Shown here one piece after another: positions 1,729 through 53,869 of a stretch of DNA of 64,000 bases. The first letter of the stretch is position 1; each line of letters opens with the position of its first letter. The position numbers and the translations under genes were made by a program. This DNA is from an uncultured bacterium. Its GTDB lineage: Bacteria > Hydrogenedentota > CAZGCA01 > CBFDCQ01. Under the pieces are notes generated by a model. The model did no database searches, was not told where the DNA came from, and saw nothing but the letters and a program-made list of their open reading frames with translations. The DNA lies in NCBI GenBank assembly GCA_965603355.1, contig CBFDCQ010000008.1:5441-69440 (forward strand). Reading direction: 5' to 3'.

Positions 1729-4212
1729 TTATTCAATTACCACTTCCTGGATACCGGCCGCCCACTTGTCCTGCAGCAACACCTCGAGTTTGAGCGCCGA
1801 GGTGTGTACAGGCTCGAAAGAAACCTCGTTGAACGAGTCTTTCTCCGTCCCATATGACCCGCCATTACTCACGGGCCTGAACTCGCCGCCGTCCCGGTAA
1901 AGGATCCGCCACGATTTCGGTACGCGGCATGCCCCGCGCCCGGTGTCGTCAAACCAATACACATTGACGCTCGATACCTCGTGCTCCTTATCCCATTCGA
2001 ACATCACCCACTCCGTCGTGCCTTCGTGCGGCCAGAAATCAAGCTGCAACCCGGAAGCGTCGGCCGAGTCGACAGGCAGAATCTGATCCTTGATCGCATC
2101 AAGAGACACGTGCACAAACGATGCCGTGGTCTTGCTCAAGTATGCGAGCGTGTCCGCGGGCTTGGGGCGGGCGGCCTCGGGAACGCTGGCCAGCCAGACA
2201 GTCATATGCGCTGTTCCGCGATGGGCCCATGCATAGTAGGGGATCGCCTTGAATGGCCTGCTCGAATCAGGAATGACACGGCCATCCGTCGTCCGCTTTG
2301 CCGTCCCGGCACGACCGGCGATTGTGACCACCCCACCAAGAAGATCGTCCTCGAACTGAGCCGTCAGCCTGGCATCGTCGGGAACCACAAGATCCGACAC
2401 CTGCCCGTCATTGTCGGGACCCTCCATACAGTACACGATTGGACCGCGTTGCAGCGCGACTTTCCCTGCATTTGACGCAATGTTCGGATGCGAGACGACG
2501 CGCCTGATCGGCATGGGAAGGTCGACTTCAATCGTGTCGCCCTTCCGCCATGTGCGCGCGATCCGCGCGTAGCCTTTCTCGATCCGCAGCGGCACCTGTT
2601 CGCCATTGACCCGGATGGATACTTCATCGCCCATCTCCTTAACGAACGTATAAAGTTCACTGGGAACCGGCTGGCTCCGCGCCCAACCGGGGACCCGGAC
2701 GTTGACAACGAAGTCCCCTTCATTCTCCGGGTCAACTGTGATCTTGACGTTACCTTTCCAGGGATACGCGGTTTCTTGCCTGAGTGTCACCTTATTGTCC
2801 GCCGTATCCACGGTGACGGTGCCGCCGATAAACAGATTGACGTAGAGATCCCTGTCTTTGTGCGCGTACGCGAAGCCGGGAACCGACGGTACGAAACGGG
2901 CCACGTTGGAGGGGCAGCACGCACATCCGAACCAGGGACTCCGGGCATGCTGGCCAATCGATTCGAGCACGTTCGGATAGAAGAACGTGTCGCCCTCCAT
3001 TGAAATACCCGACAGCGCGGCGTTGTAGAGCGTGCGCTCGAGCACGTCGACGTACATGGCATCACCATGCATCAGAAACATCCGGTGGTTCCACAGGATA
3101 TTGGCGATCGAGGCACAGGTCTCGCAATACGCCGTCATGTTTGGGAGTTCGTAAGGCCCCCCGAAACCCTCGTGTCCCCCTGCCGCTCCAATGCCGCCCG
3201 TAACATACAGTTTCTTTGTGACCACGTCCTCCCAAATCGTATCGATGGCATTGACATAGCCCATGTCGCCTGTCAGCGCGGCCACGTCCGCCATCCCCGT
3301 GTATAGATAAGCGGCGCGAACACTGTGCCCGACGGCCCGCGTCTGTTCGACCACAGGGATATGGTCCTGGCCATACGTTCCGTAGAGGTCGCCGTCCCCG
3401 TCCGGCCCGCGCCGGCCTGTACGCCCTCGCTGATCCAGAAAAAACTTCGCCTGGTCGAGATACTTCTCGTCGCCCGTCACACGGTACAGCTTGCACAATC
3501 CAATCTCGATCTCCTGATGCCCCGGAGGGTCGGTCCGCCCGTCCGCGTTGAACACGCGGCAGATCAGGTCAGCATTCTTGCGGGCAATGTCAAGGAACGC
3601 CGTGTCGCCCGTAACCTGATAATGGGCGACGGCCGCCTCGTACATGTGACCCGCGCAGTACTGCTCGTGATTCCATGAAATATTCGTCCAGAGTTCCTCC
3701 GGTTTACGGTCCGGTAACGAGTAGAACGTGAAGAGGTAGCCGTCCTCCCACTGGGCGGCGGCCATGATCCGGATGAGCTGGTCCAAATGCAGCCGCATTA
3801 GCCTGTCCGGATTGACTTGCAGGGAGTAGGCGGCCCCTTCCATGACCTTGTAGACATCCGAGTCATTAAAGACAAGTCCTTCGTGTTCCCCCTGCTGAAG
3901 GCCGGCCACCTTCTCAAAATTACTGATGCGGTCCGTCTCTTCGCACTTCTCAAACGCGTAAGGGATGGTCACCCGGCTACTCGTCTCGAGCCTCGGGGAC
4001 CAGAATCCATCGTCCACATGAACCTTGTTAAAGCTCACTGGCGTGATGTTGTAATCCCGCGGCAAAATAACCGGCCCCTGATCCCCGGAACAGTAGGCCG
4101 AACAAAACAAATGGATCACAAAACTCCATGCCAAAAACGCTTTTCCTGCGTGCATCGCTTGACTCCTTTGCCCAGCACCCTGGAAACTTCCACTTAAGAA
4201 CTCATAACACAT
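1729..4212 (-). CDS. GH127 beta-L-arabinofuranosidase family protein (DUF1680), secreted, 827 aa
   Basis: The C..CETCASIANILWNHRM..GCACCPSNVARF cysteine cluster is typical of the HypBA1/GH127 zinc site. C-terminal beta-sandwich. N-terminal signal peptide MHAGKAFLAWSFVIHLFCSAYCSG. Confidence 0.8.
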   Translation of the reverse strand: MCYEFLSGSFQGAGQRSQAMHAGKAFLAWSFVIHLFCSAYCSGDQGPVILPRDYNITPVSFNKVHVDDGFWSPRLETSSRVTIPYAFEKCEETDRISNFEKVAGLQQGEHEGLVFNDSDVYKVMEGAAYSLQVNPDRLMRLHLDQLIRIMAAAQWEDGYLFTFYSLPDRKPEELWTNISWNHEQYCAGHMYEAAVAHYQVTGDTAFLDIARKNADLICRVFNADGRTDPPGHQEIEIGLCKLYRVTGDEKYLDQAKFFLDQRGRTGRRGPDGDGDLYGTYGQDHIPVVEQTRAVGHSVRAAYLYTGMADVAALTGDMGYVNAIDTIWEDVVTKKLYVTGGIGAAGGHEGFGGPYELPNMTAYCETCASIANILWNHRMFLMHGDAMYVDVLERTLYNAALSGISMEGDTFFYPNVLESIGQHARSPWFGCACCPSNVARFVPSVPGFAYAHKDRDLYVNLFIGGTVTVDTADNKVTLRQETAYPWKGNVKITVDPENEGDFVVNVRVPGWARSQPVPSELYTFVKEMGDEVSIRVNGEQVPLRIEKGYARIARTWRKGDTIEVDLPMPIRRVVSHPNIASNAGKVALQRGPIVYCMEGPDNDGQVSDLVVPDDARLTAQFEDDLLGGVVTIAGRAGTAKRTTDGRVIPDSSRPFKAIPYYAWAHRGTAHMTVWLASVPEAARPKPADTLAYLSKTTASFVHVSLDAIKDQILPVDSADASGLQLDFWPHEGTTEWVMFEWDKEHEVSSVNVYWFDDTGRGACRVPKSWRILYRDGGEFRPVSNGGSYGTEKDSFNEVSFEPVHTSALKLEVLLQDKWAAGIQEVVIE

Positions 4213-4685
4213 TCATTGTATAAAATCGAGATTTCCCATATGGACCTGCCTGCGTCAATCACTGGCAGGTCTTCATCATAGTATATGATAGAACTCGAGT
4301 TTTCAAATCCAATACTTTCTATCATAGTCCCTCTTGAAGCCATTTATGGTCCAATCGCAGCCATCGGAGGCGACCGATAGTGCTGTGCGTGCGAATTCCG
4401 GCAGACATTCCCTGTGGGACGCTCGCCGTGTTGAAAACTCGCCGTGGCGAGGAGAGTCTGTCCTCCGCAGGAGACCTTGGGGCTAATAACTCAACAAATG
4501 ACTCGTCTCGCGAATGACCGACAAAGAAGTCGAATAATCTCCCCGGACTTGGTGTATAATATCACGAGGGGAAGGAGCGGCGCGTTCGAGCTTTGCCGGT
4601 CGGTAGACCGAGGAAAGGGAGAAGAAAACGGGAATTGGGATGAAGAATAGGTGACTGTCCCCTATTTTCTACTCCGATTAAGAAC

Positions 4686-5222
4686 ATGAGAAGACGAATA
4701 CGACTGCGGCTTTGGTTTGTCGGCGCAACGGTGGTCATAGCCACCTTAGTCGTGGCACTTTTTGCCGTTCAGACACTGCGTGAGTTCCGACGGGTATACC
4801 ATGATCTATCGTATACCGAGCAACTAGACATAGATGCAAGGTTCATCAACGGACTCCAGGTGCAAGTTCTGGATTCTTTCTTCGAGCGCACCCTATCCAG
4901 GGACGACCTGCCAACGGACCAAAGAGAATGGTTGGATCAGCATGCGGACCAACGTGGTGACCTGTACTTGGTAACTAGGGTGGCGGCCCGACCCGGGTTC
5001 CAAGGGAGGTACCGCGCCGTGAGTGACCTGATAATTGAGATCGTTGAGCCAGAGACACTTAGGGGAGAACGTTACCGCATTGTCCCCGCGCGTGGATGGG
5101 TTCAGTTGCCCGGAGAGGTGTGCTACGGCCTGTTCATGGTTCAGAATTCGCGGCGGCTTGGTGTCACCTTTGACGTGACAACTCCCGTGGAACTTAGGGT
5201 TGTTGATGTAATCACTGAATAG
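4686..5222 (+). CDS. hypothetical protein with one N-terminal TM helix, 178 aa
   Basis: ORF in an AT-richer islet. Hydrophobic N-terminus; no recognisable domain. Confidence 0.35.
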   Translation: MRRRIRLRLWFVGATVVIATLVVALFAVQTLREFRRVYHDLSYTEQLDIDARFINGLQVQVLDSFFERTLSRDDLPTDQREWLDQHADQRGDLYLVTRVAARPGFQGRYRAVSDLIIEIVEPETLRGERYRIVPARGWVQLPGEVCYGLFMVQNSRRLGVTFDVTTPVELRVVDVITE

Positions 5223-5536
5223 CACCTAGTGAGCATAGTAAGTAGGGGGAAATGAGGGAACATCCATGATAAGTGATTGTCGAGGACAGAGAAGGAGGTC
5301 TCCCGTAGATTGTTCCTGCCCGATGTTGCTGTCACGGACTCACTCAGCCGCCGTAAATAGGGGAAATAGGGGGACACCACACCTATTTCTTTTACATGTA
5401 GCCACATGCAGCGATAACGTGCCGAGTCGAGACTGTTCTCCCCGCGTTCTAACGCTGGGACTCCTCCGGACAAGTGAAATCGTGCTTTCGCGAGTCGGTC
5501 ATCGCCGGGGAGTGCGGTGATGCTCGCCCTAAAGGT

Positions 5537-5563
5537 GTCATTCTGAGCGGAGCGAAGAATCTC
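5537..5563. repeat. left copy of a perfect 27-bp inverted repeat (gtcattctgagcggagcgaagaatctc) flanking the GIY-YIG gene
   Basis: Exact reverse complement of 5873-5899. Seen directly in sequence. Confidence 0.9.
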
Positions 5564-5583
5564 ATTGCTTGCAGTAGATCGAG

Positions 5584-5898
5584 ATGAAGCAGTATTACGT
5601 TTACATAATGACCAACAAGTCTGGCACTCTATACACGGGAGTAACAAACGACCTTGAGCGGCGTGTGTATCAGCACAAGCACAAACTTGTGCCCGGCTTC
5701 ACCGCCAAGTATAACATCAGCCAGCTTGTTTACTGTGAGTCAGCCCCAGATGTGCGATCTGCAATCGCGCGCGAGAAGCAGATCAAGGGATGGCTGCGGG
5801 CAAAGAAGATCACGTTGATTGAGTCCATGAATCCGACGTGGGAGGACTTGAGTGCCGAGTGGTATGATAACGGAGATTCTTCGCTCCGCTCAGAATGA
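5584..5898 (+). CDS. GIY-YIG nuclease family protein, 104 aa
   Basis: MKQYYVYIMTNKSGTLYTGVTNDLERRVYQHK is a classic GIY-YIG motif block. The stop codon TGA lies inside the right inverted repeat. Confidence 0.85.
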   Translation: MKQYYVYIMTNKSGTLYTGVTNDLERRVYQHKHKLVPGFTAKYNISQLVYCESAPDVRSAIAREKQIKGWLRAKKITLIESMNPTWEDLSAEWYDNGDSSLRSE

Positions 5899-5899
5899 C
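5873..5899. repeat. right copy of the 27-bp inverted repeat (gagattcttcgctccgctcagaatgac)
   Basis: Perfect reverse complement of 5537-5563. Encodes the C-terminal residues SSLRSE of the GIY-YIG ORF. Confidence 0.9.
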
Positions 5900-6185
5900 G
5901 TCGGGGCAGCAGACGCGAAAAAGAAGCGCCGGAGGTCAGCCCATGCCAGGTTACTTAGGTGTCGACACGTTGCGGGATTCAAATGCCGCCTCAAGTGGCC
6001 TTTCTGCGCCATGAGGCTCGGAACGCCACCTATGAGGAGCGATGAGTGAGAAAAATGCTTTATCTGACGGACTGCGAGGGGCCTATAAGCAAAAACGACA
6101 ACGCGTTTGAGCTCGCGGAACATTTTGTCCCGGAGGGCGGCAAGTTAGCTATTGTGGGGAAACTGGCGATCAGTGAGGGAAATCC

Positions 6186-7229
6186 TCAGCCGGTTGAGGT
6201 CAGTTCGGCTATGGATTCGGGATACGGCGGATAAATCACGCCCTTTTCCGTGACGAAGGCGGTTATCAACTTTGCGGGCGTCACGTCGAACGCTGGGCAG
6301 TACGCTTTGACCCCCTCGGGGGCGATAGGCTTGCCAAGCACTTGCGTGACCTCACGAGCCGCGCGTTGCTCGATAGGTATCTGGTCTCCCCTTGACAAAG
6401 AGACGTCGAACGTCGAGAGGGGAGCCGCGACGTAGAACGGTATGTCGTGAGCGTTAGCGAGAATCGCCAGCCCGTATGTGCCGATCTTGTTGGCGGTATC
6501 GCCATTAGCGGCTATTCGGTCCGCACCGACGATAACGAGGGTCACCTTGTCTTCGCGCATCACGACTGCAGCCATGTTGTCGCAGATGAGCGTCACGTCG
6601 ACTCCGGCATGCATCAACTCCCAAGTTGTCAACCGGGCTCCCTGAAGCAACGGTCTCGTCTCGCCGGCGTAAACCTTAACGTGCTTGCCTCGTTCTTGAG
6701 CGGCAAAGATCACGCCGAGCGCCGTACCGTAGTCGGCCGTGGCGAGACCGCCGGCGTTGCAGTGCGTGAGAATGCCGTCACCGTCCTCGATGAGCGCGGC
6801 GCCAAACTTGCCTATCGCGCGACACGCGACCTTGTCCTCCTCCAGGATTGCAACCGCTTCCTTCTCGAGGAGGTCTGTGACGACGCCCGGCGGTTTGTCC
6901 CTGGTCGTCGCCAAGATACCCTTCATTCTCTCCAGAGCCCAGAAAAGGTTCACGGCGGTCGGACGAGAAGAGGCAAGATAGTCGGCGATCTCGTGCACCT
7001 TGACCTCGAGCTCGTCGGCGGTCTCGCACGCCGTGTTGCGTGCTCCCACGACCACCCCGAGGGCCGCCGCTATGCCTATGGCGGGGGCGCCGCGCACCCT
7101 CAGATTCCTAATCGCCTCCCAAACCTCCTCGACCGTATCGAGGAACAGATATTTGAGTTCACCGGGCAGCAGCGTCTGGTCAACAATCCGCATCCTGCCC
7201 TCTTCCCAAGCAACCGTTGCTATCGGCAT
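6186..7229 (-). CDS. mtnA: S-methyl-5-thioribose-1-phosphate isomerase (methionine salvage; eIF-2B alpha/beta/delta family)
   Basis: Strong family blocks: [95 protein letters not shown]. Confidence 0.9.
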
Positions 7230-11686: not shown

Positions 11687-11929
11687 ATTATCCTACCCCT
11701 CGGTTCGAGCAGTAAACACGCACACCACCTTGCGCTCGCGGCGATTATATCACTAGCTTGCGACGTTTTCAAGCGGGAAGGGCTCGTGCGTGGGCTCACT
11801 GGTCCGCACTCTCACGACAATGCCTCATTTGTCGCCGAAAACGTTCTTACAGTCTACGGCTCCGCTCTTGTCGTCGTGCCGGCGAAAGAGGGAATCCACG
11901 CTCTTGGATGAGCCCTCGGCACGTTTCCT

Positions 11930-11956
11930 GGATTCCCGCCTGCGCGGGAATGACGC
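11930..11956. repeat. solo hairpin element ggattcccgcctgcgcgggaatgacgc (reverse complement gcgtcattcccgcgcaggcgggaatcc); stem attcccgc/gcgggaat, loop ctgc
   Basis: Perfect 8-bp stem seen directly. Same GTCATTC-N12-GAATC architecture as the repeats flanking the GIY-YIG gene. Accounts for the spurious ORF peptides ..LDSRLRGND.. and ..WIPACAGMT.. Confidence 0.8.
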
Positions 11957-42629: not shown

Positions 42630-42745
42630 TAGGGTGCAGGAATGACGCATTGCTAGGGTGCGGGAATGACGCGTTGGTAGGGTGCGTGCGTGACGGGCAG
42701 TTGGAGTGTGGGAGTGGCGCATTTGGGAAAGAATGACGCCTTGGA
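42630..42745. repeat. tandem direct repeat of about 24 bp (tagggtgcgggaatgacgcgttgg), about 3 copies plus degenerate copies, each carrying GGAATGACGC
   Basis: Units 42630-42653, 42654-42677, 42678-42704 read directly, with a further gaatgacgccttgg at about 42731. The motif matches the solo hairpin element at 11930-11956. Confidence 0.8.
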
Positions 42746-52711: not shown

Positions 52712-53869
52712 CTAACGAAGGGCCTCCATCCACGGAGGATACGCATCTTCTCCTACGCCGTTTGACGCGAAAAACTCACTGATCCTCTGCGGCAGCTTCC
52801 TTCCGGGAAACAGAAACCTCAAGGGGTTCTGGAATGCAATACGATCAAGCATCTCTGGTTCCGGTGCTAATTCGGCAATAAATGGTTTCACATATTCCTC
52901 CAGTGTCCAAGTATGACGAGTCATCGGCCAATCCGTGCCGAAAATGATCCGATCCTTTGTGCGATCCTGGCCCATGAGATGCTTAAGAATTGGGAAATAG
53001 CGCTTGGCGGTTGTCCTACTCAGAGCTCTGGAGTGATACGAGAGATCTGCGTAAACATTGTCATACTCTTTCATTAAGTCCAGTATCTGGGTGCACCACG
53101 TTTCTTCCTGCCTGTCTTTTCCCATCAACATTAACTCATCATTTCCTCCAAAATGGGCAAAGTTGAGATACAACGCCGGGTGTTTTTGTAGAACCCCTTT
53201 CCAACTTGAAGGACGGCAAAAGTCTCGAGCGCACTCCATACAACGCATCAACTCACTGCTATAACCGCCGTCTTTGGAACAATGCGTAGTAATGGGAACG
53301 GAGTTTTCCTCGCAGTAGCCGTACACGGTCTCCAACTCACGCTCGACGCCGTCAGCATTACAGAAAGAGGAAGGATCAGGATGATAACCCAGGGGCGGAT
53401 ACATTTTCACTCCCAAGAAACCCATCTTGTCAAGAGCCTCTATAGTGGCTTTTGAAGCGAATTTTCTGCGAGGGTCAAACATAATAAAGGGCATTATCCT
53501 CCCCGGGTGTTCAATAGCCATATCCGATGTCAACTTCACTTGGTATCGATATGGACATTCAGGTTTTACGTGAAAAGAGGCAATCTCGAGGTCCATCATG
53601 AGCGGAGTTGACAACACAATATTCGCCTCTTTCATTTCGCCGACAAGTATTCTGGCAACCTCATCGAAATCTCTCCTCATCATGTCGAGGACTTCATGAA
53701 GCTTATCGTACTTTGGGCCCGGCGTCACCACTGTTGCGACTCTTGCGAGCCACGCCGTTCCTTTGCGCCGCAGGAACCATTCTCGGGGAGCCGATCTAGT
53801 CTTGAAAAATCCATCAGAAACGAATCTAAAATTCAGCAAATGACTGTGGACATCTATGAATTGCTGCAT
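52712..53869 (-). CDS. amidohydrolase-2 family (TIM-barrel metal-dependent hydrolase) protein
   Basis: N-terminal IDVHSH metal-binding motif, downstream His/Asp ligands (..HFGG.., ..FGTDWP..) typical of PF04909-like amidohydrolases. 385 aa. Confidence 0.65.
   Translation of the reverse strand: MQQFIDVHSHLLNFRFVSDGFFKTRSAPREWFLRRKGTAWLARVATVVTPGPKYDKLHEVLDMMRRDFDEVARILVGEMKEANIVLSTPLMMDLEIASFHVKPECPYRYQVKLTSDMAIEHPGRIMPFIMFDPRRKFASKATIEALDKMGFLGVKMYPPLGYHPDPSSFCNADGVERELETVYGYCEENSVPITTHCSKDGGYSSELMRCMECARDFCRPSSWKGVLQKHPALYLNFAHFGGNDELMLMGKDRQEETWCTQILDLMKEYDNVYADLSYHSRALSRTTAKRYFPILKHLMGQDRTKDRIIFGTDWPMTRHTWTLEEYVKPFIAELAPEPEMLDRIAFQNPLRFLFPGRKLPQRISEFFASNGVGEDAYPPWMEALR

Follow-up and report, generated by a model that had tools for sequence, protein, structure and literature searches.

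A nuclease gene enclosed by two identical inverted repeats

The stretch under study, 64,000 nucleotides of contig CBFDCQ010000008.1 from an uncultured bacterium of the Hydrogenedentota (the window hereafter), contains a small GIY-YIG nuclease gene placed between two short inverted repeats. The 27-nt repeat (GTCATTCTGAGCGGAGCGAAGAATCTC) is found at 5537-5563 on the plus strand and at 5873-5899 on the minus strand. The two arms are 100% complementary and separated by a spacer of 309 nt, and even with up to 3 mismatches allowed these two sites are the only ones in the window, with 0 expected by chance. Between them, at 5584-5898 on the plus strand, an open reading frame (ORF) encodes a single-domain GIY-YIG protein of 104 amino acids. 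It matches Pfam family PF01541 over residues 3-75 (E 4e-16), and its description as an ssn-like gene relies further on homology to SsnA (see below) and on an AlphaFold2 model. A preliminary description of the locus, made from the letters alone, had reported such an ORF between exact 27-bp inverted copies, and this is fully borne out.

Both arms have their GTC end pointing away from the gene. The left arm, identified by the perfect inverted repeat, by a covariance model and by covariation in relatives, consists of a 25-nt motif (5537-5561) followed by a conserved TC, and ends 21 nt before the ATG. Its score against covariance model R1 is 41.5 bits (E 9e-8). The right arm, identified by the inverted-repeat comparison and by the same model R1, is identical to the left one and runs into the gene. 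It spans two bases of Gly97 and then the whole remainder of the ORF, seven codons (DSSLRSE) and the TGA stop. This stop sits within a TGAC, the reverse complement of the conserved GTCA. The preliminary description was therefore right that the right copy provides the end of the protein and the stop codon, and wrong on the number of residues, given as six. The tag at the outer end of the arms reads TGTC on the left and CGTC on the right.

The core of the protein consists of residues 1-96; at residues 97-104 (GDSSLRSE) the reading frame continues into the right hairpin. AlphaFold2 predicted one compact GIY-YIG domain over residues 1-96 (predicted local distance difference test, pLDDT, 90.6 overall), with a disordered tail at residues 97-104 (pLDDT below 50). 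Among the 120 closest homologs, 44 end in DSSLRSE, DPSLRSG or a close variant, and the rest stop 0 to 4 residues past the last conserved tryptophan. The tail is thus an optional read-through.

Relatedness of the protein to SsnA

SsnA of Neisseria meningitidis is a 94-residue, single-domain GIY-YIG protein (CDD cd10448; Chenal et al. 2025, Nat Commun 16:2388, PMC11893778). It binds the hairpin repeat NTS (CGTCATTCCCGCGMAVGCGGGAATCYRG) solely as single-stranded DNA (ssDNA) and cuts it a few nucleotides upstream; cutting needs three nucleotides 5' of the palindrome, and binding needs mostly the C just 3' of it (PMC11893778). Across bacteria, an Ssn-related motif (SRM) is found near 71% of ssn homolog genes, and on both sides in 42% (PMC11893778). 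The association of nuclease and repeats, of which the preliminary description knew no characterisation, is that of the Ssn/NTS-SRM system already described in that paper.

A tblastn search of a plasmid collection with the window protein matched two N. gonorrhoeae chromosomes (E 1e-21, residues 6-95, 87% coverage). The gonococcal ssnA locus could be read there because chromosome-sized records are filed as plasmids in PLSDB: NZ_CP119142.1, NZ_CP119140.1 and NZ_AP026896.1, from N. gonorrhoeae and Aeromonas caviae, are 2.2-4.9 Mb long and chromosome-like in size. The gonococcal ORF encodes 94 residues if the start is an ATT codon, in agreement with the published Y6/Y17/E64 numbering. As it also sits among 7-8 arrayed NTS copies, we identify it as the gonococcal ssnA ortholog. 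In BLASTP, the window protein is 51% identical to it (E 7e-32). Measured against this gonococcal ortholog, it falls within the loose definition of an Ssn protein (E<1e-10 over more than 75% of the length). Residues Y7, Y17 and E64 of the window protein correspond to those mutated by Chenal et al. 2025 (PMC11893778), and they are invariant across 33 aligned sequences, which include the Neisseria, Rhizobium, Aeromonas, Spirosoma and Novosphingobium homologs. The window protein thus resembles SsnA in being a single GIY-YIG domain of about 95 residues, without an extra DNA-binding domain, with the same catalytic residues and enclosed by inverted hairpins. At this 51% identity, it belongs to a separate subfamily within the Ssn-type nucleases.

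The best matches among solved structures were UPF0213 (BH0048), Slx1 and the N-terminal domain of UvrC, and no Ssn structure was present among the PDB entries searched by fold. UPF0213/YhbQ (PDB 1zg2), Slx1 and the UvrC N-terminal domain have the same GIY-YIG fold as the window protein. However, they are about 20-30% identical to it, belong to different subfamilies and have no known associated hairpin repeats.

The family is large. A word-indexed search gave at least 8,000 matches, and an exhaustive one 15,256 representatives at E<=1e-3, including 5,286 at E<=1e-10. Homologs in viral contigs were just 2 among 2.9 million. No second GIY-YIG copy was found in the 64-kb window by tblastn, and the window protein matched none of the PADLOC defence models. 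The NCBIfam scan returned no specific model, and a sub-threshold match to TIGR01453, a group I intron endonuclease model (17.7 bits for a cut-off of 56).

This last match, with the GIY-YIG domain itself, could point to a free-standing homing endonuclease of the I-TevI type, cutting double-stranded DNA (dsDNA), for which the repeats would be homing-site remnants. The block of DNA shared with the locus of the closest homolog (described below) extends into flanking sequence and superficially resembles co-conversion. Yet the protein is a bare catalytic domain of about 95 residues, devoid of a DNA-binding domain, there is no intron or intein context, homologs are nearly absent from viral contigs (the 2 mentioned above), and homology to SsnA is much closer. 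We hold a homing endonuclease to be most improbable.

The arms belong to a variant class of hairpins

Each arm can be read as GTC / ATTCT / GA / GC / GGA / GC / GA / AGAAT / C. The consensus of the variant is a (T/C)GTC tag, a 5-bp stem, tandem G·A pairs, a GC-GNA-GC core and then, after the stem, a C. The arms share with NTS the 5' GTC, a stem opening with A-T then T-A, the C directly 3' of the stem, and the GTCATTC and GAATC ends, but their interior differs: the 5 bp, tandem G·A and GC-GNA-GC of the arms stand in place of the 8-bp CCCGCG stem of NTS. A wider comparison is with the CGTC-tagged palindromic repeats, a superfamily without a dedicated transposase that includes dRS3 of Neisseria and RPE-4/-6 of Rickettsia (Di Nocera et al. 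2013, PMC3733652). The arms have its CGTC/TGTC tag and its first stem pairs, A-T then T-A. The CGTC families have a continuous stem of 8-9 bp, a loop of 4-5 nt and a CCA tail (PMC3733652); in the arms the stem is interrupted, the loop has 3 nt and the tail reads CTC.

The motif was tested in 80 loci with homologs of the nuclease gene, 681 kb in all, from about 20 phyla and at 56-80% identity. A generic detector (GTC, any 5-bp hairpin, C) proved too loose, with 26 matches for about 17 in shuffles; a detector specific for the tandem-GA class, an anchor-only search and a structure-only search were therefore used. The class detector (GTC, stem, GA...GA, complementary stem, C) found 302 matches in the 681 kb, where about 0.5 were expected (0.05 per 64-kb shuffle). 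In the window it found the two arms and nothing else. These hairpins were densest close to the gene, with 5.4 per kb in the nearest 250 nt; their density dropped to 0.85 per kb at 250-500 nt and to between zero and 0.16 per kb (typically about 0.05) beyond 1 kb. This is a fall of about 100 fold to a level still far above chance.

The anchor-only search gave 174 matches, 86 of them unique, and none in shuffles. In these 86, 93% of the positions expected to pair in the proposed structure did so, versus 27-47% with slid partners. Double-sided changes numbered 115 versus 29 in shuffles, and not one of 500 shuffles reached the observed value. Conversely, when neither the GTC nor the C was required (structure-only search, 122 unique hairpins), a G was found at position -3 in 120 of them, a T at -2 in 119, a C at -1 in 118 and a C at +1 in 119. 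These near-invariant GTC and C flanks, present in both arms, are the positions found critical for SsnA by Chenal et al. 2025 (PMC11893778).

In the same 80 loci, the published SRM pattern had 4 matches, for about 300 with the class detector. The variant class thus escapes the pattern, and surveys made with it under-count the pairs of Ssn and repeats. A full-text literature search with the repeat sequence itself returned no relevant paper.

The GCGNAGC core of the arms is a classic DNA mini-hairpin, which speaks for a DNA rather than an RNA structure. This bears on another possible function of the repeat, in which it would act on the gene as RNA or dsDNA (5'/3' panhandle, mRNA stabiliser, terminator or operator) and have no relation to the substrate of the nuclease. 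Its placement would suit such a role, the left arm being in the likely 5' leader and the right one at the 3' end, and a 27-bp duplex could form in the transcript. What is kept in relatives, however, is the hairpin of each arm with its GTC and C flanks, and not the complementarity between arms; there are also arrays of hairpins, and single ones at a distance from the gene. A promoter and terminator consensus scan of 5200-6250 showed no terminator-like or sigma-70-like site, and Rfam, at gathering thresholds, gave no family in the whole 64-kb window. In addition, the characterised SsnA binds neither RNA nor dsDNA (PMC11893778). A regulatory role of this sort seems very unlikely to us.

Hairpins around homologous genes

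Brackets were counted in 76 homologous loci with flanks of 300 nt or more on each side. A hairpin was present within 300 nt upstream in 61, downstream in 59, and on both sides in 51. Among these 51, the nearest copies were most often plus upstream and minus downstream (27 loci), which is the arrangement of the window, with the GTC ends outward. The others were plus/plus (10), minus/plus (8) and minus/minus (6). Thirteen of the 76 loci share the register of the window, in which the downstream hairpin ends 1 nt past the stop. Similar brackets were seen around distant homologs. In Rhizobium sp. CIAT894 the gene lies between a perfect inverted pair of CGTCATCCCAGGGCTTGACCCTGGGATCCA, and in Aeromonas caviae it has a canonical NTS bracket whose downstream copy overlaps the stop. 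The core idea of the preliminary description, a GIY-YIG gene with inverted hairpins around it, is supported by these relatives.

Many loci contained hairpin arrays of alternating orientation, resembling bacterial interspersed mosaic elements (BIME), and some alternated two hairpin types. Head-to-head dimers and clusters, frequent in relatives, are a further likeness to the CGTC superfamily (PMC3733652). Two of these arrays, at 1-1300 of locus L088 and at 3100-4350 of locus L089, showed a regular alternation of GTCATTCTGAGCGCAGCGAAGAATC on the minus strand with GTCATGCTGAGCGGTAGCGAAGCATC on the plus strand. The nuclease gene adjoins a DUF499 gene in the first of these loci and a DUF1156 gene in the second.

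The parallel drawn in the preliminary description with repetitive extragenic palindromic (REP) sequences and their associated transposases (RAYT), a nuclease gene paired with inverted hairpins, is thus supported by the 51 loci with hairpins on both sides. Chenal et al. likened the NTS-ssnA-NTS layout to insertion sequences (IS) and to REP/RAYT (PMC11893778). In common with REP/RAYT and IS200/IS605, the nuclease gene lies between inverted short hairpins that would be recognised as ssDNA, and arrays resembling BIME occur in relatives. The unit differs from REP/RAYT in having a GIY-YIG enzyme and not an HUH/Y1 transposase, a GTC tag instead of GTAG, and no evidence of transposition.

Proposed mode of action

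We consider it likely that the ORF encodes an Ssn-family nuclease and that the two arms are its cognate hairpins, members of the CGTC/TGTC-tagged superfamily. The homology, the motif, the conservation of its structure and the bracket architecture are observed here; ssDNA binding, the cut position and the biological role would follow by analogy with the Neisseria and Wolbachia enzymes of the literature. Each arm alone would be the working unit, rather than a long-range pairing between arms. When single-stranded, the 5'-(T/C)GTC...C strand is predicted to fold with five Watson-Crick pairs, two sheared G·A pairs and a GC/GC clamp round a GNA triloop. By comparison with SsnA of Neisseria and Wolbachia, the protein would bind this hairpin as ssDNA only, with a requirement for the C 3' of the stem, and would nick a few nucleotides 5' of the GTC. 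The cleavable strand would be the top one at the left arm and the bottom one at the right arm, which puts the predicted cuts just outside the unit, at about 5530-5535 (top) and 5901-5906 (bottom). In Neisseria and Wolbachia the enzyme restricts or trims ssDNA that comes in or lies exposed, and in this way modulates recombination (PMC11893778). A likely role here would be the processing or restriction of motif-bearing ssDNA, either incoming DNA or replication and recombination intermediates.

Several observations weigh against this reading. Nearest-neighbour DNA folding of one arm gave -1.9 kcal/mol, not better than shuffles. The nearest-neighbour model gives no credit for sheared tandem G·A pairs nor for the stable GCGNAGC DNA mini-hairpin. 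The arms do not fit the published SRM pattern, HGTCWYN(0-2)YYVSBRHN(0-5)WNVSBRGN(0-2)RNCYNB. A changed stem sequence abolishes the activity of N. meningitidis SsnA (Chenal et al. 2025, PMC11893778), so that the specificity for the arms would have to be a different one here. Identity to SsnA, measured against the gonococcal ortholog, is 51%, below the 60% of the strict definition of the family. The geometry is common rather than fixed, since the orientation differs from that of the window in 24 of the 51 loci with two hairpins, and at the N. gonorrhoeae gene the nearest NTS copies are reversed, with their GTC ends inward and not outward as in the window. Finally, family hairpins in the 64 kb amount to three, the two arms and one NTS, which gives no indication of a genome-wide role in this organism.

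This type of system is already published (2025, PMC11893778), and the locus poses no biological question beyond those raised before, namely the role of Ssn outside Neisseria and the mobility of the unit. It offers a clean natural example of an Ssn gene with cognate hairpins, and its subfamily is very widely distributed among uncultured bacteria. What is new lies in the details: a widespread hairpin variant which escapes the published pattern, and a downstream hairpin that is recurrently fused in frame to the end of the gene. Compared with published Ssn loci, the right copy is fused in frame and gives the stop codon, and there is no repeat expansion in the window. New ssDNA cleavage specificities are, for the authors who described the Ssn family, its biotechnological value (PMC11893778). 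The variant keeps the nucleotides critical for SsnA and changes the stem, and is therefore a ready candidate for a new specificity.

Limits of the shared DNA and possible mobility of the unit

The closest homolog of the window protein (91% identical) is in locus L087, among different neighbour genes. Alignment and blastn defined a 724-nt block common to the window (5418-6141) and this locus, at 84% nucleotide identity. The block overruns the arms by 119 nt on the left and 242 nt on the right; the arms are therefore not the boundaries of the shared DNA. With locus L088, homology begins at the start codon and not at the upstream arm. No target-site duplication or flanking direct repeat was found at the arms.

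The right part of the block contains a piece of a neighbouring gene. At 6046-6141 on the plus strand, 32 codons match, with 91% identity, the N-terminus of a HAD-like gene (360 residues) of L087. This gene is full-length after the GIY-YIG unit in L087; in the window it is truncated, and mtnA (6186-7229, minus strand) overlaps it with its 3' end. The fragment is a remnant of a rearrangement or deletion beside the unit. Several short-read contigs that carry the mtnA of the window (L173-L177) break at one and the same point, about 6112, some 74 nt past the mtnA stop and inside the L087 block. This shared break point suggests that the block is repeated or polymorphic in that community.

Empty sites were searched in three ways, and none was found, because close relatives are missing. 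Relatives of mtnA in metagenomes were at best about 62% identical, with no synteny and no GIY-YIG gene nearby. With the exact mtnA protein, contigs of the same population either carried the unit or broke about 74-100 nt past mtnA. Around the homolog of Rhizobium CIAT894, the adjacent peptidase gene was all that more than 125 related plasmids had in common with the locus, and their whole left flank differed.

These results bear on whether the hairpin-ssn-hairpin unit is an autonomous mobile element, similar to an insertion sequence or to a REPtron, that would nick at its outward GTC ends, move itself and seed solo hairpins. Such an element would overlap with the Ssn reading preferred above, and adds mobility as a function. 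The unit has terminal inverted repeats with predicted cut sites just outside both ends. Its closest homologs (91% and 82% amino-acid identity) lie among unrelated genes, and homologs at 56-80% identity are spread over about 20 phyla, in a family of 5,286 representatives at E<=1e-10. Alternating arrays of the BIME type lie beside the gene in relatives, and solo copies occur 1-5 kb from it at about 100 times the chance density. The CGTC repeats lack a dedicated transposase (PMC3733652), and the analogy with insertion sequences was raised by Chenal et al. (PMC11893778).

Against mobility stand the lack of a target-site duplication, the L087 homology that extends 119 and 242 nt past the arms and includes the piece of the neighbour gene, and the L088 homology that begins at the start codon. 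Of the 27 loci with the window orientation, just 8 have arms with 90% identity or more. The 64 kb contain one copy of the gene and no further copy of the arm type. One homolog (P0052) was found in a single fixed context across 16 contigs, overlapping the next gene. The same-population contigs, 20 or more, all carry the unit, and no empty site came out of the searches through mtnA relatives, same-population contigs or relatives of Rhizobium CIAT894. Each strand would be cut just once, which by itself excises nothing, and viral contigs hold just the 2 homologs among 2.9 million. On balance, we doubt that the unit is an autonomous mobile element. That the nuclease mobilises the repeats is at this stage a hypothesis. 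Equally doubtful is its fullest form, a minimal self-propagating ssDNA element whose nuclease would be the "dedicated enzyme" spreading CGTC/TGTC repeats across phyla, with the GCGNAGC/tandem-G·A subfamily as a distinct, horizontally spreading specificity class.

Other repeats and genes in the window

A solo canonical NTS hairpin (CGTCATTCCCGCGCAGGCGGGAATCCAG) is present at 11928-11955 on the minus strand, recognised by its exact match to the NTS consensus (28 of 28 positions with that of Neisseria) and to the SRM pattern. It is intergenic, between divergent MscS-like and GntR genes, and as an exact NTS it is a further likeness of the window to the Ssn system. The DNA fold has -8.9 kcal/mol (z -2.75), an 8-bp stem, a 4-nt loop and CCAG; unlike the arms, this copy does fit the stem, loop and tail of the CGTC families. 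The motif GTCATTC-N10-16-GAATC has 3 matches in the window for 0.13 expected, the two arms and 11931-11954 (minus strand). The preliminary description had assigned arms and solo hairpin to one architecture on these common ends; the ends are indeed shared, but the interiors differ, and the solo NTS belongs to the same repeat superfamily as the arms with a different stem class. When the covariance model was run on the window, the two arms were significant (E 9e-8) and the NTS came next, at E 0.57. A dispersed repeat family, also proposed, is not visible in the 64 kb, where the model leaves the two arms and this one canonical NTS.

In an intergenic region near 42.6 kb, two tandem GCGTCATTCC[C/T]GCACCCTA units lie 24 nt apart (42639-42672, minus strand), and a third copy, GGCGTCATTCTTTCCC, containing GTCATTC, is at 42731-42740 on the same strand. 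GCGTCATTCC occurs 3 times in the window for 0.2 expected. The strings reported earlier are thus real and in excess, but the hairpin architecture attributed to them is not: they correspond to the 5' half of the NTS motif, have no complementary arm and are not hairpins. They could be decayed or half sites. Another sequence, GTCATACTCTTTCATTAAGTCCAGTATC at 53060-53087 on the plus strand, has the GTCATACT...AGTATC ends of the Neisseria "NTSvar" repeat, with just a 5-bp stem and a covariance model E of about 0.9, which is chance level.

Among homologs of the nuclease, one that is 80% identical lies in a defence-island context on plasmid p1 of Planktothrix agardhii (NZ_LR882964.1, 18847-19131), with an MmeI-type restriction-modification gene on one side and the DISARM gene drmA on the other.

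The lower GC content noted earlier around 4.2-5.6 kb is real but modest, 47-55% over about 4.0-5.8 kb versus 56-62% on either side. Upstream of the nuclease unit, this stretch contains an ORF of 178 amino acids (4686-5222, plus strand) with an N-terminal hydrophobic segment. It had no Pfam or PADLOC match, and it was called as a gene in all contigs of the same population. Further upstream is a GH127 gene (1729-4212). A homolog of the nuclease gene on a plasmid of Spirosoma oryzicola is located between GH43 and GH127 genes, and the GH127 neighbourhood common to the two loci is probably a coincidence.

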